NCBI GenBank assembly: GCA_023396535.1
Contig: JAEWWD010000090.1
Span: forward strand, 1 to 38,575
DNA: 38,575 bases
Source: Bacillota bacterium
Lineage (GTDB): Bacteria > Bacillota > Clostridia > Christensenellales > CAG-138
Direction: 5' to 3'
The position numbers and the translations under genes were made by a program. The notes below the pieces were generated by a model, which was given only the letters and a program-made list of their open reading frames with translations, made no database searches and was not told the origin of the DNA. The stretch's first letter is position 1; every line of letters starts with the position of its first letter. Positions 2,388 through 33,704 of this stretch are shown piece after piece.

Positions 2388-2417
2388 TTGACGATTATTT
2401 TAGTGGTAAGGTATACT
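2388..2417 (+). promoter_or_regulatory. Sigma-A-type promoter candidate for the signalling cassette
   Basis: TTGACG (2388-2393), an 18-nt spacer, then TATACT (2412-2417), about 110 nt upstream of the CDS in an AT-rich gap. It is flanked by three ATCGAT-centred palindromes. Confidence 0.4.
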
Positions 2418-2527
2418 AGATAAGTTATATAATATCGATTCGTTTAAAGTTTCTTCGCTATATATCGATATTGGTATAGTATTAGAAGAGTCTGTTCTAC
2501 CCAGGATTTATGAGGGGAAGTCTTGAA

Positions 2528-3799
2528 ATGGGCTATGATTTTAAATCTATCGGGGAAGTATTATTATACATAAAAAATCAAGATATCACAAATATTGATG
2601 AGCGGGCCGAGATTATTCAAGATTTTGTTGATAGTGAGAACAGAAAAAACGGTAATGCCCATGATCGATATCTGGAAAACGGTCCATCAACCCTTATGAA
2701 TGTTATTACAAAACATTCCGGCCAGAAAAAAGAGTGCATTTTATGGTGCGTCAATCATTATCTGAGCTTAAACAGAAATCCGAAGGTTATTGAAAAAGCT
2801 TGTTCTGCGCTGCACCAATATGGTACAGGATGTGGGACGTCCGCTGTATCCTGCGGAATGAGCTCTTTACATGGACAAATAGAAAAAAGAATTGCCGAAC
2901 TCATCGGTAAAGAAGATGCTGTTGTTTTCCCAACGGGATTTACAACAAATCTTGGTTCGATTTCTTTTATCGCCGGTAATAAGGATATGATCATTTTTGA
3001 CAGGGAATGTCATTCATCTATAATTAACGGGATCAAATTGTCTGGAGCAAAATGGATTTCATTCAAGCATAACAATGTACTTGATTTAGAACAAAAGCTA
3101 AAAAGATTCGAAAGTTCCTTTGAAAATATCTTTATTGTTGTTGAATCAGCCTATTCAATGAGCGGGGATCTATGCCCGATCAAAGAAATTACAGGTTTGA
3201 AGAAATCGCATACTTTCTATACATATGTAGACGAAGCACATAGCTTTGGGATCTACGGGGACAGAGGACAAGGATATTGCTATGAGCAGGGCGTCACCGA
3301 TGAAGTGGACTTTATTATTTCAACATTATCCAAAGCGACAGCGTCCATAGGCGGGTTCTTTGCGGCGAAACAAAAATATTGTTCCTTGATGAGATGGACA
3401 GATGCATACATGTTTCAGGCATGCTTGACACCGGCGGATGCGGCTGTCGTACTTGCCTGTCTTGACGAAATAGAACTAAACCCCAACATGATTCAAGAGC
3501 TTCACGCCAAAAACCGTTATATGCGTAATTTACTTTTATCAAAAGGCTTTAATCTTGGAAACAGCAAAAGTCCGATAATTCCGATCATGATCGACGACCA
3601 TAACAAATTAAGAATCGTTGTTGATGAACTCTACCAGGAAGGTATTTATTCAACACCGATTGTTTATCCTGCGGTTAAAGTTAACGAAGGTAGAATACGG
3701 CTTATTTTGAATTGTTCACATACCAAGGAGCAGATCGACTACACGGTTGAAACGCTGGAAAAGATATGTAAAGAATACCAGATAATTGACAGGGGTTAA
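2528..3799 (+). CDS. PLP-dependent alpha-oxoamine synthase family enzyme (BioF/Kbl/SPT/CqsA superfamily). Context suggests a CqsA/LqsA-like signal synthase.
   Basis: Family motifs are all present: NHYLSL, GTGCGTS, FPTGFTTNLG, DRECHSSIING, VDEAHSFG and the PLP-lysine motif STLSKA (Lys codon 3332-3334). I prefer the start at 2528 because a GAGGGGAAG RBS lies 7 nt upstream. The ORF-track ATG at 2510 is the alternative. Confidence 0.8.
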   Translation: MGYDFKSIGEVLLYIKNQDITNIDERAEIIQDFVDSENRKNGNAHDRYLENGPSTLMNVITKHSGQKKECILWCVNHYLSLNRNPKVIEKACSALHQYGTGCGTSAVSCGMSSLHGQIEKRIAELIGKEDAVVFPTGFTTNLGSISFIAGNKDMIIFDRECHSSIINGIKLSGAKWISFKHNNVLDLEQKLKRFESSFENIFIVVESAYSMSGDLCPIKEITGLKKSHTFYTYVDEAHSFGIYGDRGQGYCYEQGVTDEVDFIISTLSKATASIGGFFAAKQKYCSLMRWTDAYMFQACLTPADAAVVLACLDEIELNPNMIQELHAKNRYMRNLLLSKGFNLGNSKSPIIPIMIDDHNKLRIVVDELYQEGIYSTPIVYPAVKVNEGRIRLILNCSHTKEQIDYTVETLEKICKEYQIIDRG

Positions 3800-3801
3800 A
3801 G

Positions 3802-6666
3802 ATGCGGCTACATCCGTTGAGCCTAAGTTTCGAGGATTGCGCATTAGAAAACGAATTCAAGGCTTACTACGACTACGAAAACAGGATTTTTAATCGAATC
3901 GGAATCGGGCTTTCCTTTATGGGATGGTTCGTTCTTAATATCTATTTCTATTTTTTCTACCCTCAAGATTTTCTGCACCTGACGCTGGTCATCGATGTCT
4001 TACTGTATCCGGTTTTCTTCGTTATATTTCTGATAACAGCCTTTCCGGGCAAAATAAAATACTACCAGCCTTTAACTTCACTCGCCAACTGCCTTGCCGG
4101 GCTAATGTTTATATATGTGGCTTATTACAAGCTGAGTATCGATGTTCTATCTATCTGCGGTATCATGGCGGTAATTTTATTCGCCTTTTTCATTTTGCGG
4201 CTCAGGTTTAAAATTGCGCTGCTTACTACTCTTATCTATGTTATCGCCTATCAGGCTGCGATACTGCTGCTGCCGGTCCATGAAAACAGCAATAGGACCC
4301 TGCTCTCCGTTATCGTATGGGTTATTGAAACCGTTTGCATTGTGGGCGGATACAGTATGGAACGAAGTAACCGTAAAATGTTCTGCCAAACTAAGGAGAT
4401 TATTCATCAGCAGCAAGTGGCTGAGGCGGCGACACGGGCTAAAAGCGAGTTTTTGGCGAACATGAGCCATGAAAGCAGAACACCCTTAAATGCGATTATC
4501 GGGATGACCTATCTGGTGCAGAGAACCGATTTGAGCACGCAGCAAAAGGATTATGTGGCGAAAATCCAATCCTCCGCGCAGACGCTTCTAGGAGTTATCA
4601 ATGATATTCTGGATTTTTCCAAAGTGGAAGCCGGCAAAATGGATATTGAGACGGTTGAGTTCGATTTAGACGAAATACTGACCAACCTGGCCAACCTGTT
4701 TAATTTGAATGCCCAGAAGAAAGGCATCGAGCTGCTTTTTCAATATACGGCGGATGTACCGCAGAATTTAAAGGGCGATCCGCTTCGGATTGGACAAATT
4801 TTGACAAACCTGATCAGTAATGCGATCAAGTTCACCGATCAGGGTGAAATTACCGTTAAAATTGAGCCTTTGCTAAAGAACATGGATGAAGTCACCTTGC
4901 AATTTTCGGTCAGCGATACCGGCATTGGCATTTCCAAAGAGCAGCAAAACAAGCTGTTTCAGCCTTTCAGCCAGGTGGACGCTTCCACGACGCGGAAATA
5001 CGGCGGAACCGGTCTGGGTCTGGTCATTTGCGAACGGCTGGTCAATCTGATGGGCGGTAAGATCGGGTTTGTGAGTGAGCCGGATAAAGGCAGCACATTT
5101 TTCTTTACAGTCAAGCTCGGATGCGGTAAGCCCACAAAAAGCGATTTCACCGCCCTGACTCGACCGGACGGTGAAAATATAAGGGTTTTGGTCATTGATG
5201 ACAACCCTGTCGTGGTTGAGATTCTGATACGCATGCTTGAATCTATGCATTTATCAGCCGTGGGGGCCTGTTCCGGGGAGGAGGGACTGGCCGCGCTCAA
5301 GGATCCGACTCATACGATCGATCTGGTGCTCATGGACTGGGAAATGCCCGGTATGGACGGTCTGGAAACAACCCGCCGTATCCTGTCGATGGATGAAATA
5401 AGCTTTATGCCTAAGATCATCATGATTTCGTCCTGTGTTCTGTCTGAAATGGACGAAGAGGCCAGTCTGATCGGGATCAATAGACGTCTGACCAAACCCA
5501 TAATACAATCCCAGCTGCTTGACGCCGTGTTGAATGTATTTGGCGCAGGCAGCGAGAAATCCCTTGCTTGCAGCCGAAATGACCTTGAAGGATTGATTTC
5601 TGATCGGACGACGGATTTCAAGAGGGCAAAAATTCTCTTGGTTGAGGACAACGAAATCAACCAGCAGGTAGCAAAAGAAATGCTGCACCATATGGGGGTA
5701 CAGGTACATATTGCGTCAAATGGATTACAGGCCATAGATATGCTTGGCGGCGCTGAATACGATGTTGTTCTGATGGACGTGCAGATGCCCGTGATGGATG
5801 GCTATGAAGCAACGCGTCAAATTCGGAGCAACGACCGTTGGGCAGACCTGCCGGTGATTGCAATGACCGCCCATGCCAGGCGCGAAGATCGGGAAAAGAG
5901 CCTTCAGGCCGGTATGAACGATCAGGTAAACAAACCGATTAACCCGAACGAACTTTCGGCGGCTCTGGCAAAGTATATCAGGACGAAAAGCTGGGGAAAT
6001 TCCGGCGCCATTAAATCATGCCCTGAGGAAGAGGCAAAAGATCCGCCTTGGCCGAACATGCCAAGTATCAAGTATACTGAAGGACTATCCAGGTTGGGCG
6101 GCAACCAGGAGCTTTATAAGAAGCTGCTCGTCCAATTTCGTACCGGCAATATTGACACGCCGAATAGCATAAAAGCAGCCCTGGCCCAAGGCGATGGCAA
6201 GACGGCAGGCAGGCTGGTTCATACTGTCAAAGGGGTGGCTGCCAATATTGGAGCAAATGAGCTTGCATTTGCCGCTGCCGAGCTGGAGATGGCAATGAGA
6301 AATGGTACTATTGCTGACAGCGATGTTCTTCTGGAAAAATTCATCTCATCCCTTGCGTTAGTAACAGACGAGATAAGAACATTTGAGGATGCGATGGCTA
6401 TCAAACCGGATTTTGAATTGCGCGACACGGCAACAGTATGTGTCAATGTAGATGCTGTACAGCAACACCTGATCAATCTGGCGCGAATGCTGGAGAGCGG
6501 CTCGATAAAATCTGTACAGGAACTAAGTGCTCTGGAAGGTTACTTTAAAGATAGCAGGTTAGAAAAACAGTTTGAACAGATGGAAAAGCAAGTTGATATA
6601 TTCGACATGGACAGCGCTCTGGGAGTACTGAGGGCGATTGCCATAGAACTTGGAATATCTTTATAG
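3802..6666 (+). CDS. Hybrid sensor histidine kinase: 6-TM membrane sensor, HisKA, HATPase, REC, REC, HPt
   Basis: 954 aa, starting 2 nt after the upstream stop. There are six hydrophobic segments in aa 33-186 with very short loops. H-box SHESRTPLN (His223, 4468-4470). N/G boxes NLISNAIKFT, DTGIGI and GGTGLGL. Receiver Asp512 (5335-5337) and Asp659 (5776-5778). HPt motif HTVKGVAANIG (His807, 6220-6222). Confidence 0.9.
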   Translation: MRLHPLSLSFEDCALENEFKAYYDYENRIFNRIGIGLSFMGWFVLNIYFYFFYPQDFLHLTLVIDVLLYPVFFVIFLITAFPGKIKYYQPLTSLANCLAGLMFIYVAYYKLSIDVLSICGIMAVILFAFFILRLRFKIALLTTLIYVIAYQAAILLLPVHENSNRTLLSVIVWVIETVCIVGGYSMERSNRKMFCQTKEIIHQQQVAEAATRAKSEFLANMSHESRTPLNAIIGMTYLVQRTDLSTQQKDYVAKIQSSAQTLLGVINDILDFSKVEAGKMDIETVEFDLDEILTNLANLFNLNAQKKGIELLFQYTADVPQNLKGDPLRIGQILTNLISNAIKFTDQGEITVKIEPLLKNMDEVTLQFSVSDTGIGISKEQQNKLFQPFSQVDASTTRKYGGTGLGLVICERLVNLMGGKIGFVSEPDKGSTFFFTVKLGCGKPTKSDFTALTRPDGENIRVLVIDDNPVVVEILIRMLESMHLSAVGACSGEEGLAALKDPTHTIDLVLMDWEMPGMDGLETTRRILSMDEISFMPKIIMISSCVLSEMDEEASLIGINRRLTKPIIQSQLLDAVLNVFGAGSEKSLACSRNDLEGLISDRTTDFKRAKILLVEDNEINQQVAKEMLHHMGVQVHIASNGLQAIDMLGGAEYDVVLMDVQMPVMDGYEATRQIRSNDRWADLPVIAMTAHARREDREKSLQAGMNDQVNKPINPNELSAALAKYIRTKSWGNSGAIKSCPEEEAKDPPWPNMPSIKYTEGLSRLGGNQELYKKLLVQFRTGNIDTPNSIKAALAQGDGKTAGRLVHTVKGVAANIGANELAFAAAELEMAMRNGTIADSDVLLEKFISSLALVTDEIRTFEDAMAIKPDFELRDTATVCVNVDAVQQHLINLARMLESGSIKSVQELSALEGYFKDSRLEKQFEQMEKQVDIFDMDSALGVLRAIAIELGISL

Positions 6667-6679
6667 TGGGAAATAAAAA

Positions 6680-7762
6680 ATGACTTTATTTGCAGAACAA
6701 AAACGAATACTGGTTATCGATGATACGCCGGAAAATATTCATATCCTGATGGAAATACTAAAGGATCAGTACGATGTCTCAGTAGCGATTAACGGAGAAA
6801 GAGCCCTGAAAATCGCTGCCATGGATATGCCCGTGGATCTGATATTGCTTGATATCATGATGCCCGAAATGGACGGATATGAAGTATTTTCCAAATTAAA
6901 AGCCAATCCGAAAACCGCAAACATCCCTGTGATCTTTGTCACGTCTTTGGCTGCAGTAGAGGATGAAGCCAGAGGCCTGGATATGGGCGCCGTAGATTAT
7001 ATATCCAAACCGTTTAATCCCGCGTTGGTCAGGGCCAGAGTTAAAAATCACCTGGAACTAAAAAATTATAGAGATAAACTGGAATACATGGTGCGGGAAA
7101 AAACAAACGAATTGATGATTACACGCGATGTCACGATTGAAACGCTTGGTTCTTTGGCTGAATTCCGTCATCTCGAAACAGGAAACCATATTAAGCGTAC
7201 TATGAATTATGTCCGTCTTTTGGCCGAAAAGCTCCAAGACCACCCTAATTATAAAGAATTTCTGGATGACGAGACGATAGAACATCTTTGGAAGTCGGCA
7301 CCATTACATGATATAGGCAAAGTGGGCGTGCCGGACAGTATTCTGATGAAGCCGGGCAAGCTGACGCCGGAGGAGTATACTGTCATGCAAAAACATGCCG
7401 TCTACGGCCGGGATGCCCTTGCCGGCGCCGCGTCTAAACTTGGCCCCAATTCATTTCTCAGTATCGCGCAGGAGATGGCATATACACATCATGAAAAATG
7501 GGACGGCACAGGCTATCCGCAAGGCCTTATAAGCACATCAATTCCAGTTTCCGGGCGGCTGATGGCAGTGGCTGACGTCTATGATGCCTTGATTACCCGA
7601 CGCGTCTATAAACCTGCCTTTTCCCAGCACGAAACCGTCGATATCATAGCCAATGACAGCGGCAAAGCATTTGATCCTGATATTATAAGAGTATTTCTTA
7701 AATATGCGGATCGTTTTTATCGTATTGCCCTGGACTTTGCCGATAAAATGGTTGAGAAATAG
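6680..7762 (+). CDS. Response regulator with HD-GYP output domain (RpfG-type c-di-GMP phosphodiesterase family)
   Basis: 360 aa. REC domain (ILVIDDTPEN, LLDIMMPEMDG, FVTS, ISKPF) followed by HD-GYP motifs (HLETGNHIKR, LHDIGKVGVPD, HHEKWDGTGYPQGL). Confidence 0.9.
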   Translation: MTLFAEQKRILVIDDTPENIHILMEILKDQYDVSVAINGERALKIAAMDMPVDLILLDIMMPEMDGYEVFSKLKANPKTANIPVIFVTSLAAVEDEARGLDMGAVDYISKPFNPALVRARVKNHLELKNYRDKLEYMVREKTNELMITRDVTIETLGSLAEFRHLETGNHIKRTMNYVRLLAEKLQDHPNYKEFLDDETIEHLWKSAPLHDIGKVGVPDSILMKPGKLTPEEYTVMQKHAVYGRDALAGAASKLGPNSFLSIAQEMAYTHHEKWDGTGYPQGLISTSIPVSGRLMAVADVYDALITRRVYKPAFSQHETVDIIANDSGKAFDPDIIRVFLKYADRFYRIALDFADKMVEK

Positions 7763-7834
7763 TGCAATTGCAGGAGCGGAACCCGGCCTCCAGGTCCTCG
7801 CCGACCGGTAATTGTATAGCTTATCAGAAAACGC

Positions 7835-8038
7835 CAAATTGTATCAGAACCTACGCCGTTAGTCATAATAGAACGCAGGTCTTGATACAATGAAAGCCTC
7901 CAGAGTTTCTGGAGATTTTCCGCGTTTTGGGGAGAAATGGGGTCCCGTTTGAGCGCCGATTTGCGGCCTTGCACATAGTATCGTAAAAAGGTATGCACGC
8001 CTCCCGTCGACTTTTGGGACCTTTCGGCAAAAGGTGCG
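7835..8038 (+). repeat. Intergenic repeat family 1, copy C
   Basis: CAAATTGTATCAGAACCTACGCCGTTAGTCATAATAGAACGCAGGTCTTGATACAATGAAAG, then a hairpin (ctccaga/tctggag), then TTTTGGGGAGAAATGGGGT, GCACATAGTATCGTAAAAAGGTATGCAC and CTTTCGGCAAAAGGTGC. It is colinear with copies A and B. Confidence 0.75.
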
Positions 8039-8132
8039 CCCTTTTAGGTTTAGTCCCCCACACGGGCAGAAGGTTGAGCGCAGGGTCTATAAGTGATACA
8101 ATAGTACCGATCACGTTCATACTCTTTTTGGG

Positions 8133-10727
8133 GTGGGGCATTTGTCCGATTCAACTCTTATCAAAACCAAATACTGCATCCCACGTGCAAATCCGAGCAC
8201 GATATTGCGTGAACGGATGCTCGAAAAGCTGGATCATGCGCTTGAGCGGATGCTTACGCTGGTTGTAGCGCCGATGGGATACGGCAAGACAACAGCGGTT
8301 TATGAATGGGTGGAAAAATCGGGATTGCAAGCGGCATGGCTTTCGTTGGACGAAAGCGATAATGATCCGATCGTTTTCTGGAAGTACATTTGCGCAGCGA
8401 TGGAAAAAATCCTTCCTGGAGTTGCGAACGATGTCCAATATGCTTTTTCTTCGTATCAGCTAATGGAAGCGAACGTTCCTGTCAACATCCTCATCGACAG
8501 ACTGGCGCAACACGGCGGCAAAGCGCTGCTCGTCATAGACGATCTGCATACGATCTCGAACGCGCAAATATTAAAAGGGCTTTCACATCTTCTTGAATAT
8601 CTTCCCGCAAACGCGCATGTGATTATCATAAGCAGGGCAGAACCTGCGATGGAGCTTCATAAGTTTGAATTGCGCTCTCAGGTTTTACGCGTTACCGCAG
8701 CTGACCTTCGGTTTCGGCAGGATGAAATTGCTGATTTCTACCTGAAGCGCGAGTGCACGTTCGGCAAGGAAATTATTGAAAAGATCGGCAGTTATACGGA
8801 GGGCTGGGCCGCGGCCATGGTTGCCCTTGCTGTATCGGCGCAGAACGATTGCATTAACAGCGCCCTGCTTAACGGCATAGCGGCGACAAACGCCGACGTG
8901 TATCAATACCTGATGAACGAGGTCTTTGAAACGTATCCCCCTGAAAAGAAGACATTTTTGCTTAAAATCTCCATATTGGAGTTTCTGCAACAGGATATTT
9001 GCAGCGCCATAACCGGCGAAGATAACGTTACGCGTTTTTTTGAGGATATGAGCAAAAGGAACGAGTTTGTGACCTTGCTCAGCGATGAAAGCAGCGTCTA
9101 TCGGCTGCATCCGATTTTGAAGGACTTCCTGCTCAAAAAACTCAGGCAAGACGATCCTGACGCGTATGCAGAACTGCATACGAAAGCGGCGCTGTGGTAC
9201 CGCGAGCGGGGTATGCTGCCGCTCGCCATTTCGCATTATTTGGGCGGCGCGCGGTACGCGGAGGCCTTCGAACTGATCGAAATGCAACTGGGCAATTTTG
9301 CGAGCAAAAACGAATATGAAACCGCGCATTCCTGGATCGAGCAGCTTCCTGCGCATTATAAGCACAAAAGCGTCAAGATCGCGGTGTTTTATTCCATGTA
9401 CTCCGCGCAGCGGCGGGACTTCGAAGCATCCCACAAATGGCTCGCCCGCGCCAGGAAAATACTGGCGCATGACCAAAGGGGAGAAAGTGGCATGCAGGAT
9501 TGCGCCTTGGTCGGCCTTACGGCGGTCAATCTGCTGCTCAGGGAAGGCAATGCGGCAGAACTTCTTAGACTCATCCGAAGCAATGAAATCCGCAACAACA
9601 ACACATTCGGAACCGTTGAATATATGGATTTGAACGATTCGGCTATCTATATGTACCGAAGCCCGGTCCATATCATGGTAAAGCTGTTTGAGATGGACCG
9701 CGATGCGCTTTATAAGCTGCGGGACTATCACGGCATCCTGTCCACAAAGACTCCGGGGTTTGTTCCCTTGGCGGCCGGAGAATATCTTTATGAAAAGAGC
9801 AGGCTTGAGGAAGCGCTGCCATTGTTCTTGCAGGCGATTGAAGCCGCGCGGCCGCTCAATTATCCGGGCGTGCTGGTCCCGGCAATGGTTGGTATTTCCC
9901 GCATAAAGAGAAGCAGGGCCGATATGGCTGGCGCTCTCGCCGTCTTGGAGGAATGCGAAAGCAGGCTTAAAATCATTCAAAAACCGCATTGGAATGACCT
10001 TGTGTCCGCGCTGAAAACGCGCTATTCCATCGAAACCGGTAACATGGATGAGGCGCAAAAGTGGATCCATGCCAATAAGCTGCACATATTCAGCGAAATC
10101 AAAAGAGTCCGTGAATTTGAGCTGATCGTACTTGCAAGGGCTTTATGGGCAAAAAAAGACACGAGCGACGCCGAACTGCTGCTGATGCGGCTTCTGCAGT
10201 TTGCACAGGCCGAAGGCCGTTTGCACAGCGAGGTTGAAATACTGAATCTGCTGGCGATGATAGCCTGCCAACAGGGCAATACCTCCCCTGCAGTTGTGTA
10301 CTTGGAGAGATCATTACGCATAGGGCTTGCCGAAGGCTATGTGCGCAGCTATATCGACGAACAGGCGCCGATGCTTACCGTATTGAAGCAGGCGATGCGC
10401 GCATTTAAAAAAACGGAGGAGGTAAGCCGGGAACTGGAGCGCTTTGTCGGTTCCCTCGTTTCGCTGCTTCAGGAGGAAATGAATGTGCCGCCCGGCGGCA
10501 GCACGGTCGGCAGCATGAAGTTAAAGAAGCTGCTGACCGCAAAAGAGTTTGAAGTGCTGGAATTGCTGTGTGCCGCACACTCGAACGAAGATATCGGCAA
10601 AAAGCTGAATATCGGCCAGCGCACGGTCAAGACGCACACGGGAAGCATTTACAACAAGCTGGGAGTCAAGACCCGCGCCCAGTGCGTAAAGCTGGCGTAT
10701 GAGGAAGGGCTTTTGCTATCGGATTAG
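8133..10727 (+). CDS. LuxR-family transcriptional regulator of the MalT/LAL type (N-terminal ATPase, helical/TPR-like middle, C-terminal LuxR HTH)
   Basis: 864 aa with a GTG start. N-terminus LIKTKYCIPRA, Walker A VVAPMGYGKTT and Walker B LLVIDDLH. C-terminal HTH is LTAKEFEVLELLCAAHSNEDIGKKLNIGQRTVKTHTGSIYNKLGV. Confidence 0.85.
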   Translation: MGHLSDSTLIKTKYCIPRANPSTILRERMLEKLDHALERMLTLVVAPMGYGKTTAVYEWVEKSGLQAAWLSLDESDNDPIVFWKYICAAMEKILPGVANDVQYAFSSYQLMEANVPVNILIDRLAQHGGKALLVIDDLHTISNAQILKGLSHLLEYLPANAHVIIISRAEPAMELHKFELRSQVLRVTAADLRFRQDEIADFYLKRECTFGKEIIEKIGSYTEGWAAAMVALAVSAQNDCINSALLNGIAATNADVYQYLMNEVFETYPPEKKTFLLKISILEFLQQDICSAITGEDNVTRFFEDMSKRNEFVTLLSDESSVYRLHPILKDFLLKKLRQDDPDAYAELHTKAALWYRERGMLPLAISHYLGGARYAEAFELIEMQLGNFASKNEYETAHSWIEQLPAHYKHKSVKIAVFYSMYSAQRRDFEASHKWLARARKILAHDQRGESGMQDCALVGLTAVNLLLREGNAAELLRLIRSNEIRNNNTFGTVEYMDLNDSAIYMYRSPVHIMVKLFEMDRDALYKLRDYHGILSTKTPGFVPLAAGEYLYEKSRLEEALPLFLQAIEAARPLNYPGVLVPAMVGISRIKRSRADMAGALAVLEECESRLKIIQKPHWNDLVSALKTRYSIETGNMDEAQKWIHANKLHIFSEIKRVREFELIVLARALWAKKDTSDAELLLMRLLQFAQAEGRLHSEVEILNLLAMIACQQGNTSPAVVYLERSLRIGLAEGYVRSYIDEQAPMLTVLKQAMRAFKKTEEVSRELERFVGSLVSLLQEEMNVPPGGSTVGSMKLKKLLTAKEFEVLELLCAAHSNEDIGKKLNIGQRTVKTHTGSIYNKLGVKTRAQCVKLAYEEGLLLSD

Positions 10728-10751
10728 TCCCGTCGCAAAACAAACAGAAAT

Positions 10752-10795
10752 AAAGCTTGCGGTATCGTACCTTTGTACGATGCCGCAAGCTTTTT
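10752..10795 (+). terminator. Rho-independent terminator after the LAL regulator gene
   Basis: 19-bp stem aaagcttgcggtatcgtac / gtacgatgccgcaagcttt (one G-U pair), loop cttt, then a T run. Confidence 0.8.
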
Positions 10796-10912
10796 GCTGT
10801 GCTACCATTTTAAGCGGTATGGTACGAATCGGGGGAATTGCATCGAATGCCTGTCAAAGAACCCCGCCAGGCGCGAAAGTATATGCCGTTATATAAATTG
10901 GAGGAAACGCAA

Positions 10913-13900
10913 ATGAAAGCAGCGAAAAAATCACTGGCGCTTGTGCTGATCGCATTAATGGTATTGACGATGCTGCCGCAGCCGGCGCGGGCTGCGGATT
11001 ATACCGTCAGCAATCAGGAAGATTTGGATGACGCGTTGGAAACAATACCAGCCGGCGAGACGGCAACCATTAATTTGGCGGGGAGCTTCGATTATCATGG
11101 CGGCCTCGTTATCGACGGCGGCCGCTTGATCACCTTTCTGCTGAACGATTATACGCTGAACATAATCAACGACGCGGGAACCGCTCTTGAAGTCAGCGAC
11201 TACGCCAGGGTGGCCTTTGACTGGGACCCCGGGGGAGAGGGCAAGCTCAACGCGATCAGCGAAGCGGAGGGTCATGGCGTGTCCGCCTACGATGGCGGAA
11301 TAGCGTTCGTAACCAACGCCACGGCGGAAAACGCGGGAGGAGGCGGCGGCGTAGCCGTCGCTGCGGCAGGTGCGGGCAGCCGGGTCACCCTGTATGGAGA
11401 TGCCAGCTGCACCAATCCTTACGCAATGTTCCCGGGAGCCGTACTGGCCGCCTCCGGCGCTGCCGTCGTGGTGGAAGGCGATGTGGTTTGCACCGGCAAT
11501 TTGGCTGATACTGAAGGGATGCTTGGCGTAGCGGCGGCGGACGGCGGCAGCGTGGAAGTGGAAGGCAGCGTCAGCGTATCGTACATTGATGACGCAGATA
11601 GTCGTCCGGGCGACATTTTCGGCGCGTTCGCTATGGCGGAAGGCACGGTCATAATCGAAGGCGATGTAACGGCGGACGGCGCGGGAACCATAACAGGCGC
11701 AGGGGCGATGGGAGGCACGCTCATAGTCGACGGCGATATAACGGCGGACGGCGACGGAGAGGTCATAGGCGCATTGTCTAAGTGGGGCGGCGCGGCGGTT
11801 CTCAACGGCTCGATCACTGTGCCCGACGGGGCGGCGGATATCGCGCTGGGCGACGACCAGGTGACCGACATCGAAGGCGTGCCGGGGGTATTGCCGGACG
11901 ACCTCCTAGACCTCTTGGAGGGATTCGATCGTTCGGATCTGGCTTCTGACGCTTATCTGGTTTACACCTGTACCGACGAGGTAGAGGGCGGCGGCGAAGT
12001 AGTAAGCTTCGTCTATGTGGAAACATTTGCGGGCCCGGCTTGCGCGATCGGCGATACGGAGTATAGCACGCTTGAAGCTGCGCTCGCCGACGCGGAGGAA
12101 GGCGAGGAAACGACCATCAGGCTCCTGCGGGATATCGATTATGAAACCGGTATTGAGGTGACCGGCAGAACCGTCATCTTCGACCTGAACGGGTGCGAGC
12201 TGTTTGTGTTGAACAGCGGTGGAAACGGGCTGACCGTAGGCGCGGGCGGCGTCGTGGATATCACGGATACCAGCGACGAAGAATACAGTGAACTCACTGT
12301 TATGAGCAGCAGCGCCTATGGCGTGTACGCCCATGACGGCGGGCAGGCGACAGTGACCACCGCGGGAGGCCAGCAGGGGGGTGTGTATGCCGCGGATGGC
12401 GCCTCCGTCCATGTAACAAACATAGCCTATGGAGTCGATACCGGCGTATTTGCGACCGGCGGCAGCACGGTAACGGTCGATTTTCAGATCGGCGTTATGG
12501 GGGAAGACGGGGTATATATCATGCTGGGGGACGTCGCGAAAAACTCGGAGGACGGCGCGATGGGAACGGCGCCCTATGAAAACTATCTGGTCTACTCGGA
12601 CGGAAGCGGCAACATTGTCCGCGTGAAAACGAACGCGGTCTGCAGGCTGAGCCTAACCACGGTTGATGGGACATATGTGAGCTTGTATGAGGAGATCGGC
12701 GATGCGCTCGAGGAAATGAATAGTACGCTGCCCGGCTCAACAGGAACCATCACGCTGTTTACGGACATCGAATACGATACCGGCATTAAAATCAACGGCA
12801 GGGCACTCACCTTTGACCTGAACGGGCATACGCTCAACGTAATTAGCAGCGTGGGTCACGCCCTTGAGGTCGGCAGCGGCGGCGTAGTGGAGCTGATTGA
12901 AAACGGCGGTGAGTTCAATGTCATCAGCGAAGCGTCCGGCTATGGCGTATACGCCCACGACGGCGGAAAGGTGGAAGTAACCAATGCGGAGGGCTTTATC
13001 GGCGCAGCAGCGCTTGGCGACAATAACTATGTGGAAATAGCAGGCAATGTCATAAGCAGGCAGAATGCCGTGCAGGTCGCGGGAGAACGCAATGTTGTAA
13101 TCGTTCGCGGGAACGCTTCCCTGTCCGGCGATGACCGGCCCAATACGGCCGGCATTGTCATCCAGGGCGGCTCCGATAGTACGGTTTTAGTAGGCGGCAA
13201 CCTGACGGTAACCGGTACGAACGCCACAGGCATATCGTTGATATTGGGCGGCTCAGTGATCATACAAGGCGAGTTCAGTGCGCCGGAAGAAGACTATATC
13301 ATGTTGGCTGCCTTGGATTCCGGCGGCGAACCCGTCCTTACATTCCCAACCGCCGCCGATGGTCTGACGGGGAAACTGCCTTCAGTGCTGTTGGCTCTGC
13401 TCGAACTGGATGATGCAGACTATCTGGTGTATACCGACGAAATCAACGCCGTCTACGTGAAAATTCCGGTGGGCGCCACGATCAGCCCGACCAGCGCGGC
13501 GTTTGACAAGAACCCGGCGGAGCAGGAGGACGTGACCGCGACGATCACATGGAACGACGCGGCGTCGGTGGCGGACGTGAAGGCGGGCGAAACTTCCATC
13601 GGGACGGGTAACTACAGCGTGAATGGGAACACGCTGACCGTCAAGAAGGAGTATCTGGCGACAAAGGCCGACGGCGACCTGGTTTTGACTGTCGAATTCA
13701 ACGACGGCGGTTCGGTGATGCTGACGATAACGGTCAGTGAGAGCACTACGAACACAGGTTCCGGCTCCGGCGGCAATGGCCCTGCGTACAGTAGCTGGAC
13801 ATTGACCGACAGCGCGACGGGTATCACGGTATCGGGCGACGACATCCACAGGATGGCGCGGCTCGCGGTTTCCCCGCTTAAGCTGCACTCCGCGGATACC

Positions 13901-14284
13901 TGCACGGCCTGTGACGCCATACGCAAGGCGCAAAAGGACGGCGATCTCATACTCGGTTATGATATCAGCCTAATTCCCGCTGCGACCGGCGAGCTTACGA
14001 TCTCCATCCCGGTGGGCAGCCAGTATAACGGCCGGACCTTGGTCATACTCCACTGCGTCAACGGCGGGCTGGAAACGATCATCGCAACGGTAGTCAATGG
14101 TGTGGCGATCTTCACCACCTCGTCGCTTTCGCCTTTCGCGGTGACCACCGGCCTGCTCATACCGGATGCCGCGGTGACCAACCCTCCCAAAACGGGAGAT
14201 GAAGCTTCGTCGTTCGGCCTCATCATATCCGGCCTCACGGTGCTGTGCGCGGGTTGGCTGATTATGAGGCGGCGCAAAGTATAA
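10913..14284 (+). CDS. Large secreted, sortase-anchored cell-surface protein with internal repeats (beta-helix-like Gly/Ala/Val/Asp-rich region and an Ig-like X2-type module)
   Basis: Signal peptide MKAAKKSLALVLIALMVLTMLPQPARA-ADY, with a GGAGGAAACGCAA RBS before the ATG at 10913. The ORF-track start at 10838 lacks these features. The C-terminal sorting signal is PPKTG (14183-14197), followed by a hydrophobic stretch and RRRKV. Three ~50-aa repeats are present (for example TIRLLRDIDYETGIEVTGRTVIFDLNGCEL and TITLFTDIEYDTGIKINGRALTFDLNGHTL). Confidence 0.85.
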   Translation: MKAAKKSLALVLIALMVLTMLPQPARAADYTVSNQEDLDDALETIPAGETATINLAGSFDYHGGLVIDGGRLITFLLNDYTLNIINDAGTALEVSDYARVAFDWDPGGEGKLNAISEAEGHGVSAYDGGIAFVTNATAENAGGGGGVAVAAAGAGSRVTLYGDASCTNPYAMFPGAVLAASGAAVVVEGDVVCTGNLADTEGMLGVAAADGGSVEVEGSVSVSYIDDADSRPGDIFGAFAMAEGTVIIEGDVTADGAGTITGAGAMGGTLIVDGDITADGDGEVIGALSKWGGAAVLNGSITVPDGAADIALGDDQVTDIEGVPGVLPDDLLDLLEGFDRSDLASDAYLVYTCTDEVEGGGEVVSFVYVETFAGPACAIGDTEYSTLEAALADAEEGEETTIRLLRDIDYETGIEVTGRTVIFDLNGCELFVLNSGGNGLTVGAGGVVDITDTSDEEYSELTVMSSSAYGVYAHDGGQATVTTAGGQQGGVYAADGASVHVTNIAYGVDTGVFATGGSTVTVDFQIGVMGEDGVYIMLGDVAKNSEDGAMGTAPYENYLVYSDGSGNIVRVKTNAVCRLSLTTVDGTYVSLYEEIGDALEEMNSTLPGSTGTITLFTDIEYDTGIKINGRALTFDLNGHTLNVISSVGHALEVGSGGVVELIENGGEFNVISEASGYGVYAHDGGKVEVTNAEGFIGAAALGDNNYVEIAGNVISRQNAVQVAGERNVVIVRGNASLSGDDRPNTAGIVIQGGSDSTVLVGGNLTVTGTNATGISLILGGSVIIQGEFSAPEEDYIMLAALDSGGEPVLTFPTAADGLTGKLPSVLLALLELDDADYLVYTDEINAVYVKIPVGATISPTSAAFDKNPAEQEDVTATITWNDAASVADVKAGETSIGTGNYSVNGNTLTVKKEYLATKADGDLVLTVEFNDGGSVMLTITVSESTTNTGSGSGGNGPAYSSWTLTDSATGITVSGDDIHRMARLAVSPLKLHSADTCTACDAIRKAQKDGDLILGYDISLIPAATGELTISIPVGSQYNGRTLVILHCVNGGLETIIATVVNGVAIFTTSSLSPFAVTTGLLIPDAAVTNPPKTGDEASSFGLIISGLTVLCAGWLIMRRRKV

Positions 14285-26978: not shown

Positions 26979-29588
26979 ATGATAAAGATCATCGATGTTA
27001 TCACTCTTAGGGGCAGAAACATTTACAGTCACTTTCCTGTTATTAAAATAGTCGTCGACACTGGGAAATATGGCCAGGTCATGACGACGGAAATCGAACA
27101 TTTTAACGATTGGGTTTTAACGGAGTTCCCGGGCCTTAAAACAAATGTATGCGGGCTCGGGTATGAGGGAGGGTTTCTAGAGCGCCTGAAAGAAGGGACA
27201 TTGCTGGCGCATGTCGTGGAGCATATCATACTGGAAATGCAGTTTATGGTCGGATATAACGTTACGTTCGGCAAGACCAGAATTATGGACAAGCCTGAGC
27301 AGTCGTATATCATATATGAATACATGAACGAGGCGTGCGGTCTGGAATGCGGGAAAGCAGCCATTTATATTGTAAATGGCTTCCTGAAGCATAAAAAAAT
27401 AAACGTTCAGCAAATGATCGAAAGAATAAAGGAAATATCCAGGGATACCGATCTTGGCCCGAGTACGAGCGCGATTTTCAATGAGGCCAAAAACCGCGGC
27501 ATCCCCGTAAGCCGGCTGGGAAATGAGAGCATTATCCAATTGGGATACGGCAAATATCAGCACAGGCAGCAGGCCACGCTGGCCGATACGACCTCCTGCA
27601 TTGCGGTGGATATTTCATCCGACAAGCACCTTACCAAGACGCTGTTGAAGCAGCAGGGGATACCTGTTCCGGACGGTAAAATGGCCTACAGCGAGATATC
27701 CGCCATGGAAGCGGCAAAAGAAATCGGTTTTCCCGTCGCGATCAAGCCGTTTGACGGTAATCAGGGAAAAGGCGTTCATTTGAACCTGAAAAACGAGCGT
27801 GAGATGAAATCGGCCCTGAAAGACGCGTTCCTTTATAGCAATGCCGTAATCGTGGAACGCTTTGTTTTAGGAAAGGACTATCGCGTACTGGTCGTAGGCA
27901 ATAAAGTAAGCGCCGTATCTGAAAGAATTCCGGCCTGTGTGACGGGAAACGGCATACACACCGTTTCGGAACTTGTGGAATTGACTAACCAGTCGGAAAA
28001 CAGGGGCGATCATCACGAAAAACCGTTGACGAAAATCAAGCTGGACGCCAATGCGCGGCGGCTGCTTAAAAGATATAAATTGTCCCCATCTTCCGTTCCG
28101 GAAAAAGGCGTCAGAGTATTGCTTCGGGAGAACGGCAACCTCAGCACCGGCGGAACGGCTATCGACCGGACGGATGAGATTCATCCCGATAACGCGGAGC
28201 TCGCCATTCGGGCTGCTTCCGCTTTGGGTATCGACATAGCGGGGATAGATTTTGTAACAAAGGATATCTCCATACCTGCGGCACTGAACGGAGGCGTAAT
28301 CGTAGAGGTGAATACTGCCCCGGGAATTCGCATGCATCTTTACCCCTCGGAAGGAAAAGCCCGCAATGTGGCAAAGGATATTGTGGACTTTTTATTCCCG
28401 CACAACGAAGCCATGCAATTTCCGATCGTTTCCGTAACGGGTACCAACGGAAAAACGACGACGACGCGCCTCATAGCGCATACCCTGTTAAGGTCAGGGC
28501 GCTCCGTCGGTATGACGAGTACGTCGGGCACTTACATCAATGGGAAGCGCATTCATGCGGGTGACGATACGGGGGCTATGAGCGCAAGCATGGTTTTATC
28601 CTCAAAAGCCGTGGATATTGCGGTGCTTGAAACAGCCCGCGGCGGCATTTTACGCTCCGGACTGGGGTATGATCTGGCGGATGTCGGCGTCATTACGAAT
28701 ATCGCGGATGACCACTTGGGATTGGAAGGCATTCACACGCTCGAAGAGATGGCGTTTGTAAAGTCGCTCGTGGCGGAAGCGGTAAAAGATACGGGTTATG
28801 CGGTATTGAACGCTGCGGATAGCATGACCGAGTCAATTATAAAGCGCGTAAAATCAAATATCATATTGTTCGCAAAATCTGCCGATGCCTTTCAAACAAG
28901 ATATAACCGCGAGATCAAGGTATATGTTTCCGACGGCATGATAACCGTCGATGATGGTAAACCCAAGCCTGTTGTCGCTATACGGGATATTCCCATTACC
29001 AGAAACGGCTCCATACCGTGCAACGTGGAGAATTGCCTGGCTGCAACAGCAGCGCTTTACGCATTGAAAATACCCTTGCAGGATATCGCAAACGGCTTGT
29101 TAACCTATGTGCAGAATGAAGGACGGTTTGATCACCATGTCATGAATGGCTACGCCATATTGCTGGATTACGGGCATAACCTGCCCGGCTATGAATCCGT
29201 AGTGCAGGCTTTGCCGGCATACAACGCAAAGCGGCTGGTCGGTATTATCGGCATGCCGGGAGACAGGCAAAATGAAGCGATAGAAGCGGTGGGCAAATTA
29301 TGTGCGCGGCACTTCCAAAAGATATATATCAAAGAGGATGAGCATCTGAGGGGGCGCAAGAGAGGCGAAGTCAATAAAATACTGTACAAAGTCGTTTCGG
29401 GCGCAAAATTTTCCAAACAGGATATTATCATAACCGAAAATGAAATTGCGGCGCTCCAGAATGCTATGGAAACAGCGCAAGAAGGCGATTTGATAGTAGT
29501 TTTTTATGAACATCTCGAACCAATACTGGAACTCATTCGGGGCTTTGATCCGGGATTGAATAAGCCTGATGCTACAGCTCCCTTGTAA
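26979..29588 (+). CDS. cphA: Cyanophycin synthetase
   Basis: 869 aa. It has the characteristic N-terminal domain (IKIIDVITLRGRNIYSHFPVIK; LAHVVEHIILEMQ), an ATP-grasp domain (KPFDGNQGKGV; NGNLSTGGTA; VEVNTAPG) and a Mur-ligase-like domain (VTGTNGKTTTT). Confidence 0.9.
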   Translation: MIKIIDVITLRGRNIYSHFPVIKIVVDTGKYGQVMTTEIEHFNDWVLTEFPGLKTNVCGLGYEGGFLERLKEGTLLAHVVEHIILEMQFMVGYNVTFGKTRIMDKPEQSYIIYEYMNEACGLECGKAAIYIVNGFLKHKKINVQQMIERIKEISRDTDLGPSTSAIFNEAKNRGIPVSRLGNESIIQLGYGKYQHRQQATLADTTSCIAVDISSDKHLTKTLLKQQGIPVPDGKMAYSEISAMEAAKEIGFPVAIKPFDGNQGKGVHLNLKNEREMKSALKDAFLYSNAVIVERFVLGKDYRVLVVGNKVSAVSERIPACVTGNGIHTVSELVELTNQSENRGDHHEKPLTKIKLDANARRLLKRYKLSPSSVPEKGVRVLLRENGNLSTGGTAIDRTDEIHPDNAELAIRAASALGIDIAGIDFVTKDISIPAALNGGVIVEVNTAPGIRMHLYPSEGKARNVAKDIVDFLFPHNEAMQFPIVSVTGTNGKTTTTRLIAHTLLRSGRSVGMTSTSGTYINGKRIHAGDDTGAMSASMVLSSKAVDIAVLETARGGILRSGLGYDLADVGVITNIADDHLGLEGIHTLEEMAFVKSLVAEAVKDTGYAVLNAADSMTESIIKRVKSNIILFAKSADAFQTRYNREIKVYVSDGMITVDDGKPKPVVAIRDIPITRNGSIPCNVENCLAATAALYALKIPLQDIANGLLTYVQNEGRFDHHVMNGYAILLDYGHNLPGYESVVQALPAYNAKRLVGIIGMPGDRQNEAIEAVGKLCARHFQKIYIKEDEHLRGRKRGEVNKILYKVVSGAKFSKQDIIITENEIAALQNAMETAQEGDLIVVFYEHLEPILELIRGFDPGLNKPDATAPL

Positions 29589-32368: not shown

Positions 32369-32575
32369 TCGTGATAGATTATAGAATGGGTAAATAAGAA
32401 ATTCAAGTGGTTTTTGAGAATTCCCTATAAAATCTTTTTCGTGTATAGAAATATCCCAAAGAAAAGCAATAAAAGAGGTGGTTGACAACCACAATGAGTT
32501 ATTGTATGCTCATGCATATAGGACGCATCCGATCGATTTTAAGAATTTGTGCAATCACTATTTTTTTAGCCCAAG

Positions 32576-32596
32576 GTGGCATGCCACTAGAATGCC
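32576..32596. promoter_or_regulatory. 21-bp site containing GTGGCATGCCAC (right copy)
   Basis: GTGGCATGCCACTAGAATGCC, about 35 nt upstream of the dehydrogenase start codon. Confidence 0.55.
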
Positions 32597-32630
32597 GGTA
32601 GCAACAGATCAACAAAGAAGGTTGTTCGCT

Positions 32631-33704
32631 ATGCAAGAGAAAATGAAAGCCGTACAAATCCATGCCCCCGCTCAGTTTTCGGTGGATTGGGTCGACGTAC
32701 CCCGCCCCGGGCGCAACGAGGTTCTCGTTGAAATCAAGTCGGTAGCAATCTGCGGCTCCGATCCCGGCATATTTGGGGGCAAGGTGCTGCAAAACGGCTG
32801 GCCACCCTATTTTCCCTTCATCGCGGGGCACGAGTTTGCGGGACGTGTTGCCGCCCTGGGCGAGGGCGTCGTTAAACTAAAGGAGGGGGACAGGGTATCC
32901 GGCGAGGCGCATTGCGGGTGCGGTACCTGTCAGATGTGCGCGGCCGGGCGTTATAACCTTTGTTTGAATTACGGCCGGCCAGACAGCGGGCATCACCATT
33001 ATGGGCACAACACGCCGGGCTGTTACGCCCAGTATCAGGTCTATGATCAAAAGGCGCTGACCATACTGCCGGATACTGTGAGCTATGACGAAGGGACGCT
33101 TGTGGATACCGCCGGCACCGCTTACAACGCGCTGCGTTTGACGGGCGTGGAGCCGGGCGGCTACACGGCGATCATAGGCCCCGGCCCTATGGGCATGATG
33201 GCGATGCTGATCGCAAAGGCGCTTGGCTCCCGTACGATCATGATAGGCCGCGGGCAACGCCTTACTATGGCGAAAGCGCTGGGCGCAGACCATACGGTCG
33301 ATTACGAGCAGAGCAGCGACGTAGTCTGCGCCGTGCGGGAACTTACGGGAGGGTATGGCGCACACCAGGTAGTAGAAGCCGCAGGCAACGCGTCGGCGTA
33401 TTATCAATCCGTGCAGATGGCGCGCAAGGGCGGGCACGTGGCGTTGATCAGCATCCCGCCCAAAGACGGGCAGGAAGCGGCCCTTAAAAGCCTCATTATG
33501 AATCAAATCACGCTGCACGGCGTACGGGCAAACCCGAATTGCTCCCAGCCTGTGCTGGAGCTGATTTCCTCCGGCAAAATCGCGGCGGCAAAAATGATCA
33601 CGCATGTATTTCCGATAGACGATATTCACGAGGCCTTCGACACCTTCCTGACGCGCAGGGACGGCGCCATGAAGGTTTTAATCCATCCCAACGGGGACTG
33701 TTGA
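32631..33704 (+). CDS. Zn-dependent medium-chain dehydrogenase (polyol/sorbitol/threonine dehydrogenase-like), paralog 1
   Basis: ICGSDPGIF, GHEFAG, the structural Zn cluster CGCGTCQMCAAGRYNLC, and the Rossmann motif IIGPGPMG. I chose the start at 32631 (AGAAGG RBS), trimming the ORF-track extension from 32478. Confidence 0.85.
   Translation: MQEKMKAVQIHAPAQFSVDWVDVPRPGRNEVLVEIKSVAICGSDPGIFGGKVLQNGWPPYFPFIAGHEFAGRVAALGEGVVKLKEGDRVSGEAHCGCGTCQMCAAGRYNLCLNYGRPDSGHHHYGHNTPGCYAQYQVYDQKALTILPDTVSYDEGTLVDTAGTAYNALRLTGVEPGGYTAIIGPGPMGMMAMLIAKALGSRTIMIGRGQRLTMAKALGADHTVDYEQSSDVVCAVRELTGGYGAHQVVEAAGNASAYYQSVQMARKGGHVALISIPPKDGQEAALKSLIMNQITLHGVRANPNCSQPVLELISSGKIAAAKMITHVFPIDDIHEAFDTFLTRRDGAMKVLIHPNGDC

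Follow-up and report, generated by a model that had tools for sequence, protein, structure and literature searches.

Two kinds of described system are close to the locus considered here. The CqsA/CqsS system of Vibrio (signal CAI-1) and the LqsA/LqsS/LqsT/LqsR system of Legionella (signal LAI-1) carry out alpha-hydroxyketone quorum sensing. To our knowledge, autoinducers based on an alpha-oxoamine synthase (AOS) have so far been found only in Gammaproteobacteria and a few other Gram-negative bacteria. In the RpfC/RpfG system of Xanthomonas DSF signalling, a membrane-sensor hybrid kinase with a receiver (REC) and an HPt domain is paired with a REC-HD-GYP protein that degrades cyclic di-GMP (c-di-GMP). 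Contig JAEWWD010000090.1 of a Bacillota bacterium (38,575 nt, referred to as the window) contains a cassette of three genes, which encode an AOS (gene 1), a hybrid kinase with a six-transmembrane-helix (6TM) N-terminus (gene 2) and a REC-HD-GYP response regulator (gene 3). The cassette is proposed, with moderate confidence, to be a self-contained circuit in which a diffusible lipophilic signal made by the AOS would be sensed by the 6TM domain and passed through a phosphorelay to the HD-GYP domain, thereby lowering c-di-GMP.

The three genes (Table 1) are all on the plus strand with intergenic gaps of 2 nt and 13 nt, as given in the initial annotation of this DNA, and are proposed to form one operon. 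The first open reading frame (ORF) opens at 2510 and the start of gene 1 was placed at 2528. The sequence AGGGGA is located 8 nt upstream of this start, the N-termini of homologues agree with it, and the resulting protein is identical over 423 aa to the database protein P0001. The start coordinate 2388 of the initial annotation is explained by a promoter-like match at 2388-2417.

Judged by its sequence, gene 1 is an AOS of a distinct subfamily, which is not CqsA by descent and is not a canonical serine palmitoyltransferase (SPT), BioF or Kbl. The Aminotran_1_2 match (PF00155) places the protein in the AOS superfamily, and the hallmarks DRECHSS (aa 158-164), VDEAHS (aa 234-239) and the STLSKA lysine (K269) are all located where they had been annotated. 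The placement of gene 1 was based on curated NCBIfam hidden Markov model (HMM) scores and on phmmer scores against PDB chains. Gene 1 misses the cut-off of every curated NCBIfam AOS model for SPT, BioF, Kbl, 5-aminolevulinate synthase (ALAS) and CqsA. It scores 334.7 bits against the Bacteroidetes-type SPT model NF047600 (cut-off 640), 312.7 against the betaproteobacterial SPT model NF047599 (500), 223.9 against the SPT model NF047603 (670), 299.6 against the BioF model TIGR00858 (426), 291 and 247 against the Kbl models NF005394 (460) and TIGR01822 (493), and 254 against the ALAS model (339). The CqsA-type autoinducer synthase model NF005526 (209.7, cut-off 428) ranks ninth among the AOS models. 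The order is similar for solved structures, with 247 bits for the Sphingobacterium SPT, 180-197 for Kbl, 186 for cysteate acyltransferase, at most 137 for BioF and 108 for CqsA. Therefore, the term CqsA-type in the initial annotation does not hold as a statement of relatedness. The closest characterised enzyme is the SPT of S. multivorum, at 37% identity.

The active site of gene 1 was mapped using the published description of SPT residues (PMC10196870). Residues H138, S185, D210, H213, T241, S243 and K244 of the S. multivorum enzyme correspond to H162, S210, D235, H238, T266, S268 and K269 of gene 1, which together with N76 are the pyridoxal phosphate (PLP) and catalytic residues that gene 1 keeps. 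All members of the AOS family share H162, D235 and H238, and at least 90% of the sequences have K269. The residues near the substrate side chain and phosphate are changed (S53 to H77, A79 to G103, G80 to T104, R82 to A106, F83 to V107 and S273 to Q297). H77, G103 and Q297 are invariant in the AOS family, T104 and A106 are nearly so and position 107 is variable. From the SPT-type residues around L-serine (A79, G80, S81 and S273), gene 1 has retained only S81, as S105. Since the catalytic residues are kept, all cut-offs are missed and the pocket is changed, gene 1 represents a separate AOS subfamily that is catalytically intact and apparently active. The HMM comparison that the initial annotation had called for thus places gene 1 outside of BioF, Kbl and SPT, with pocket residues that differ from those of SPT. 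A catalytically dead AOS that serves as a sensor domain was also considered and was ruled out, since all catalytic residues are conserved. The substrates of gene 1 are not readable from its sequence.

Databases label homologues of gene 1 as 8-amino-7-oxononanoate synthase or glycine C-acetyltransferase. These labels would fit a housekeeping BioF, Kbl, HemA or SPT that happens to lie beside an unrelated two-component system. However, in addition to the missed cut-offs, biotin genes are absent from the window ORFs scanned and from the conserved neighbours of the AOS, no tdh is adjacent to gene 1 (a zinc-dependent alcohol dehydrogenase-family gene at 32478-33704 is ~29 kb away and is not syntenic), and no sphingolipid-pathway genes were found next to gene 1 in the window. 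These absences agree with the initial annotation. The conserved signalling synteny, the enrichment of signalling neighbours and the existence of PilZ and degenerate GGDEF fusions, all described below, also speak against a housekeeping role, which was rejected as very improbable.

The domains of gene 2 and gene 3 are as originally described. In gene 2 the Pfam matches and motif positions agree on the HisKA histidine H223, the HATPase, the receiver aspartates D512 and D659 and the HPt histidine H807. Gene 3 has a receiver (Asp58) followed by an HD-GYP domain with the motifs HDIGK (aa 210-214) and HHEKWDGTGYP (aa 270-280). The Pfam matches of the cassette are strong and not due to chance. A hybrid kinase with REC and HPt domains and a separate REC-HD-GYP protein with intact motifs is the architecture of RpfC/RpfG. 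Of the initial description (a CqsA-type synthase joined to an RpfC/RpfG-type arm), the second half is supported by domains and motifs, and descent from CqsA is not supported by the scores. An RpfF-type crotonase DSF synthase, as a source of signal, is absent from the operon, in which the AOS is the sole enzyme.

Gene 2 opens with six hydrophobic helices (aa 1-190) that are connected by loops of 1-5 residues, and an extracytoplasmic domain is absent. The hydropathy profile and the AlphaFold2 model, which was built with an alignment of database proteins, agree with each other and with the initial annotation on this point. Within the membrane, S38, W42, N96, Y146, Y150 and W173 are conserved residues of the 6TM domain. 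A search of the 6TM region against Pfam and NCBIfam (E<=10) gave no match reaching a curated cut-off and nothing above noise. The best fold match of the model is the 6TM domain of P. aeruginosa ImcA (8wcn, TM-score 0.75, E 1.3e-4), at an identity of only ~20%, and weaker matches are the membrane domains of mammalian AC8 and AC9. ImcA needs its 6TM domain for activity and is reported to be regulated by the iron-sensor partner IsmP through protein contacts, with no known membrane ligand (PMC10904736). The Vibrio CqsS receptor has been noted to share its 6TM design with cyclase anchors (PMC4821796).

When 1.84 billion cluster representatives were scanned in full with HMMER, 140 relatives of the 6TM domain were recovered. 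A profile search of a 5.8-billion-protein index with the 6TM alignment returned one fragment only, as the word index evidently fails on a hydrophobic domain. The AOS-linked 6TM group, which includes both histidine kinase (HK) and GGDEF-EAL architectures, is at least 46% identical, after which identity drops to 37% or less. The 99 relatives that were scanned carry class III cyclase (Guanylate_cyc, 51), GGDEF (15), HK (13), Ser/Thr kinase (8), SpoIIE (5) and AraC (1) domains. This variety suggests that the 6TM domain is a promiscuous membrane input module and that the AOS-linked proteins are one discrete subfamily. That subfamily occurs only beside an AOS or in a genome possessing one, and a distant 6TM-cyclase member has no AOS neighbour. 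In a metagenome-assembled genome (MAG) of Ignavibacteriales, a 6TM-kinase paralogue that is unlinked to the cassette is present in addition to it. The 6TM domain of gene 2 may be a sensor of the gene 1 product within the membrane.

The genome scan used one genome per species and two peptide patterns. It yielded 159 AOS relatives, of which 80 loci were kept, so the frequencies given here are approximate. Homologues with 60-88% identity to gene 1 occur in Syntrophomonadaceae, Desulfitobacteriaceae, Oscillospiraceae, Planococcus, Cohnella, Filobacillus, Gottschalkia, Geopsychrobacter and an Ignavibacteriales MAG, and those with 53-57% identity in Cyanobacteria, Fibrobacteres and Maribacter. No AOS relatives were found in a viral contig collection. 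A close clade was defined at 64% identity or above and comprises 29 genomic loci (L001-L028, L055). For synteny, the domain segments of the window proteins, plus an HMM of the 6TM domain, were compared with all ORFs of the 80 loci. A gene starting with the same 6TM domain is located directly downstream of the AOS, on the same strand, in 24 of the 29 close-clade loci, and the HMM matches no other ORF in the 80 loci. The 24 downstream 6TM domains are 43-80% identical to that of gene 2.

These downstream genes have two architectures. The first is that of the window (6TM-HisKA-HATPase-REC-REC-HPt, followed by REC-HD-GYP) and is present in 15 genomic loci, in two of which the contig ends within the third gene, and in L090. 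In L007, given as a sixteenth locus of this architecture, the kinase itself ends at the contig end. The hosts are Sporobacter, Desulfosporosinus, Syntrophomonadaceae, Oscillospiraceae, Dichloromethanomonas, Smithellaceae/Syntrophaceae MAGs (Desulfobacterota-type) and the Ignavibacteriales MAG. The three-gene order suggested for a synteny search is thus conserved in 16 other loci from at least three phyla. The Gram-positive framing of the initial annotation covers only part of the hosts, since the cassette is also in the Smithellaceae/Syntrophaceae and Ignavibacteriales MAGs. The second architecture, 6TM-(PAS)-GGDEF-EAL with an intact GGDEF motif, is found in the Bacilli Cohnella, Planococcus, Paenisporosarcina and Filobacillus. 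In both architectures the outputs are c-di-GMP turnover domains throughout. Pairwise identities of the AOS and of the 6TM domain are correlated (r=0.82), a value reached by 0 of 2000 Mantel permutations.

A 6TM domain that keeps its synthase neighbour despite output exchange and transfer between phyla would carry the signature expected of a ligand-receptor pair. Two points count against this reading of the circuit. An operon that is transferred as a unit can also show adjacency and co-variation when its products are not ligand source and receptor, just as the correlation by itself could reflect co-inheritance, and the nearest solved 6TM fold, that of ImcA, has no known membrane ligand and reportedly acts by protein-protein contacts (PMC10904736). 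The two genes might then be merely co-localised, with the 6TM domain sensing membrane state, a partner protein (as in ImcA/IsmP) or an exogenous lipid, and the AOS sharing the same c-di-GMP-linked programme. The wider 6TM superfamily, which is not linked to an AOS, is consistent with this alternative. It is nevertheless improbable, since the AOS-linked subfamily is confined to AOS-bearing genomes, the link persists where the output domain is entirely replaced and where the pair has moved between phyla, and the AOS family is also paired with unrelated types of sensor, which is hard to reconcile with hitch-hiking. The claim that the locus is a synthase and membrane-sensor circuit feeding c-di-GMP, not a housekeeping AOS, is supported by comparative genomics, given the missed cut-offs, the conserved synteny and the reuse of the sensor with GGDEF-EAL in Bacilli. 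Of the sequence findings that could have overturned it, neither a place for the AOS within BioF, Kbl or SPT nor a lack of the three-gene order in other genomes was observed.

Association with signalling genes extends to the wider AOS family. A census of neighbours covered 81 loci (the 80 and the window) and scored HK, REC, GGDEF, EAL, HD-GYP, cyclase and Ser/Thr kinase domains by BLAST, which under-counts them. Signalling domains were detected in 59 of 152 genes adjacent to an AOS versus 20 of 513 genes at least 4 positions away, an approximately ten-fold enrichment, and a signalling domain is fused or adjacent to the AOS in 60 of the 81 loci. The partners include a giant STK-AAA-TPR-GAF-HK protein in cyanobacteria, 7TM-HK and REC proteins in Margulisbacteria, cyclase and REC proteins in Fibrobacteres, an HK, a REC protein and a hybrid HK in a Burkholderiaceae MAG, MASE3-PAS-HK in Clostridium cylindrosporum and SBP-GGDEF-HD-GYP on another Bacillota contig. 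In Gottschalkia purinilytica (L081:7605-9047) the kinase adjoining the AOS is cytoplasmic, and the precomputed annotation assigns its N-terminal domain to PF26965 (MimR_N). Should this N-terminus prove to be a sensor of small ketones, it would give a clue to the chemical nature of what the AOS makes. The sole recurring partners outside of signalling are acyl-activating enzymes, an AMP-binding ligase in Syntrophomonadaceae and FAAL-ACP in Myxococcales.

Several members of the family have other arrangements. A Calothrix MAG has two tandem AOS paralogues (L051:8181-9470 and ~9977-11266) beside a giant STK-GAF-HK gene. A 45%-identical AOS is located at 6968-8254 of a 54-kb plasmid of Rhizobium rhizoryzae (NZ_CP049247.1, L093), beside a class I S-adenosylmethionine-dependent methyltransferase. 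From its holin, lysozyme and ParA genes, this plasmid looks like a phage-plasmid. In Pseudoalteromonas luteoviolacea (L078/L079, 8075-11650) an AMP-binding domain, a carrier protein and an AOS of 42% identity are fused into a protein of ~1190 aa, an assembly-line-like version of the enzyme.

Some relatives of gene 1 carry c-di-GMP receptors. The AOS-GGDEF fusions, of which Geopsychrobacter has one, have a degenerate GG(D/E)EF motif in all 14 sequences examined (e.g. YDEEAF, HGDNTF and YEQDKL), and an RxxD I-site five residues upstream is kept in the same 14. I-site receptors, for example PelD, likewise combine a degenerate GGDEF with an intact RxxD. The AOS members from Myxococcales have an N-terminal PilZ domain with RxxxR, and the second motif is the canonical NLSxGG in two of four and ASLSVSG in the other two. 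One of these PilZ-AOS genes (L053) is flanked by genes for a FAAL-ACP protein and a GGDEF-EAL protein. In Thermincola ferriacetica, where the AOS has no sensor neighbour, the AOS leader contains a c-di-GMP-I aptamer, which scores 73 bits against a gathering score of 35 and is followed by an intrinsic terminator and the start codon. A second example of a riboswitch and AOS is from the same lineage, at 88% identity. Thus c-di-GMP appears to act upstream of the synthase in other lineages, a point that is missing from the initial annotation. A second c-di-GMP-I riboswitch (45.5 bits) was observed at L010:18109-18185 in a deltaproteobacterial MAG, where an AOS-GGDEF fusion gene is located ~6 kb upstream of it.

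The proposed circuit builds on the gene order, domains, catalytic residues, conserved synteny and receptor fusions described above. Gene 1 would condense an amino acid with a fatty acyl thioester in a PLP-dependent reaction to give a lipophilic alpha-amino-ketone, or a derivative formed from it spontaneously or by an enzyme (a hydroxy-ketone or a pyrazine). This product would partition into membranes and leave the cell. It would be bound inside the bilayer by the 6TM domain of gene 2, which would switch between kinase and phosphatase states. Phosphate could then pass from H223 to D512 or D659, on to H807 of the HPt domain and finally to Asp58 of gene 3. Phosphorylated gene 3 would have an activated HD-GYP domain and hydrolyse c-di-GMP. 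Where the synthase has its own c-di-GMP receptor, a loop would close between c-di-GMP and the signal. As the synthase appears to be under c-di-GMP control in related lineages, the signal probably both reports the c-di-GMP state and resets it, which would amount to feedback or to a relay at the level of the community.

Further points weigh against the circuit. The riboswitch examples are confined to a single lineage. Gene 1 itself has no PilZ domain, no I-site GGDEF and no riboswitch in the Pfam and Rfam scans, so the idea of feedback is carried over from other lineages. Among the loci compared, neither an exporter nor a tailoring enzyme is conserved beside the AOS. The identity of the product, its binding to the 6TM domain, the sense in which the kinase switches, the route of phosphotransfer and the phosphodiesterase activity are predictions. 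Finally, gene 1 is closest to SPT, so its product could be a structural long-chain base instead of a diffusible signal.

Alternatively, c-di-GMP might control the AOS as an output enzyme whose product is a membrane component, sphingoid-base-like or an amino-lipid, e.g. for biofilm or envelope remodelling. The 6TM proteins would then monitor this lipid in the membrane of the producer and feed back on c-di-GMP, with no signal between cells. Bacterial SPTs as the closest characterised relatives, FAAL-ACP and acyl-CoA ligase partners that point to long acyl chains, a sensor that is wholly intramembrane and the lack of a conserved exporter are all consistent with this. PilZ, I-site and riboswitch control are also typical of c-di-GMP effector enzymes. 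However, ketoreductase, ceramide synthase and other lipid-tailoring genes are not conserved beside the AOS, and the SPT pocket residues are replaced (A79 to G, G80 to T, R82 to A and S273 to Q) in a way that is invariant or nearly so in the family. The cytoplasmic Gottschalkia kinase, with an N-terminus of small-molecule-sensor type, is a better fit to a small soluble ligand, and the unlinked 6TM-kinase paralogue in one MAG is as seen in known autoinducer systems. A cell-autonomous lipid circuit is therefore considered rather unlikely, and the circuit with a diffusible signal is preferred.

Table 1. Coordinates of the cassette features in the window
Feature	Position	Strand	Evidence
Sigma-70-like promoter match, TTGACG-18 nt-TATACT	2388-2417	+	Consensus scan, 10/12; pattern match only
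Gene 1, AOS, 423 aa	2528-3799	+	Pfam PF00155 3e-46; K269 codon 3332-3334
Gene 2, hybrid kinase with 6TM N-terminus	3802-6666	+	ORF and Pfam domains
Gene 2 N-terminal 6TM domain, aa 1-190, putative sensor	3802-4371	+	In no Pfam/NCBIfam family; AlphaFold2 pLDDT 97
Gene 2 HisKA, H223	4438-4635	+	Pfam 1.4e-20
Gene 2 HATPase_c	4774-5118	+	Pfam 2.3e-31
Gene 2 REC1, D512	5179-5544	+	Pfam Response_reg (two stretches, 1e-50)
Gene 2 REC2, D659	5632-5967	+	Pfam Response_reg (two stretches, 1e-50)
Gene 2 HPt, H807 (HTVKG)	6127-6360	+	Pfam Hpt 2e-11
Gene 3, REC-HD-GYP response regulator, predicted c-di-GMP phosphodiesterase	6680-7762	+	Pfam and motifs
Gene 3 REC, D58	6707-7042	+	Pfam Response_reg 7.5e-26
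Gene 3 HD-GYP	7181-7684	+	Pfam HD_5 1.8e-27, HD 5.6e-17

The region upstream of gene 1 includes an unusually long stretch of ~950 nt (1558-2509) without a convincing ORF, and a terminator-like hairpin is located inside it at 2002-2032. Rfam scans of the whole window and of this gap gave zero matches, so there is no riboswitch on the AOS of the window by this measure. The region upstream of gene 1 shows no conservation relative to the 88%-identical locus L001. An ATCGAT-centred palindrome occurs three times (AATCGATATC, ATATCGAT and ATATCGATAT) within 2372-2472, around and downstream of the promoter-like site and before gene 1. The three palindromes could be an operator.

Other genes of the window lie outside of the cassette. 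A MalT-like AAA/TPR regulator of the LuxR family (864 aa, 8133-10727) is located 370 nt 3' of the cassette and is outside the conserved synteny. A secreted beta-helix/CBM_X2 protein (1148 aa, 10838-14284) ends with PPKTGDE, a hydrophobic stretch and RRRKV. This C-terminus looks like a sortase-type anchor, which fits a Bacillota host. A cyanophycin synthetase-like gene (869 aa, 26979-29588) is beside an amidohydrolase gene and has no relation to the cassette.

The principle of an AOS synthase with a membrane sensor is already known, whereas the enzyme clade, the receptor domain and the proposed direct two-way coupling to c-di-GMP are new here. The literature searched for links of an AOS to c-di-GMP, PilZ, riboswitches, diguanylate cyclases or sensor kinases gave no description of such a system, although coverage was incomplete and absence is not proof. 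The titles and abstracts found in a search for CqsA/LqsA homologues do not mention the AOS family of gene 1. A broader proposal, put forward tentatively and with some doubt, is that the AOS family makes a so far unknown amino-ketone-derived lipid signal, the synthesis of which would be gated by c-di-GMP (PilZ, I-site or riboswitch) and the perception of which, by 6TM domains, would reset c-di-GMP. If this is true, cells would broadcast and synchronise their second-messenger state. It would also be the first CqsA-like (AOS-based) autoinducer system of Gram-positive bacteria, and would be shared horizontally among syntrophic anaerobes, e.g. Syntrophomonas, Smithella, Desulfosporosinus and Sporobacter. 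The cassette would carry AOS-based signalling into Bacillota and several other phyla with a different enzyme clade and receptor. A chemical signal tied to c-di-GMP at both synthesis and perception suggests coupling of second-messenger states within a community. Gene 1 is also a candidate source of ligand for one subfamily of a large unannotated input domain. The same 6TM domain is found at the N-terminus of many adenylate cyclases, diguanylate cyclases, histidine kinases and Ser/Thr kinases. Every step of the proposed circuit is testable with the three genes.

Relative to known systems, the relatives of gene 1 have the same three types of receptor as BcsA/Alg44 (PilZ), PelD (I-site) and the genes with c-di-GMP-I riboswitches, with the difference that the enzyme there is an exopolysaccharide synthase and here an AOS, and that gene 1 of the window carries none of these receptors. 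The S. multivorum SPT (PDB 3a2b/8guh) has catalytic and PLP residues identical to those of gene 1 but differs in the pocket. Gene 1 reaches only about half of the SPT model cut-off and its context is signalling, not lipid synthesis. ImcA (PA1851), a 6TM-GGDEF diguanylate cyclase of P. aeruginosa, appears from the model to share the 6TM fold (8wcn). ImcA is regulated by IsmP with no AOS partner reported, and the AOS-linked 6TM proteins form a tight cluster of their own. Most of the 6TM relatives that are distant in sequence are class III cyclases, the family that includes the class III adenylyl cyclases, or GGDEF proteins.

The layout of RpfF/RpfC/RpfG is shared with genes 2 and 3, but the synthase there is the crotonase-family RpfF and here an AOS, gene 2 has two receivers, and the likeness is one of domain architecture. 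The CqsA/CqsS and LqsA/LqsS systems are like the cassette in that an AOS is paired with a six-helix, membrane-embedded sensor kinase without a periplasmic domain. In the window this pairing is direct, with gene 2 starting 2 nt after gene 1. The likeness is at the level of design, and the AOS of the cassette is not orthologous to CqsA. Legionella has an unlinked extra sensor paralogue, LqsT, which may be compared with the paralogue of the Ignavibacteriales MAG. The output of cassette-type systems would be direct hydrolysis or synthesis of c-di-GMP, whereas the known systems use LuxU/LuxO or LqsR. The hosts of CqsA/LqsA are Gammaproteobacteria and those of the cassette are Bacillota, Desulfobacterota-type bacteria and Ignavibacteriales. 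Unlike the CqsA/LqsA systems, the AOS family of the cassette bears c-di-GMP receptors in some lineages.

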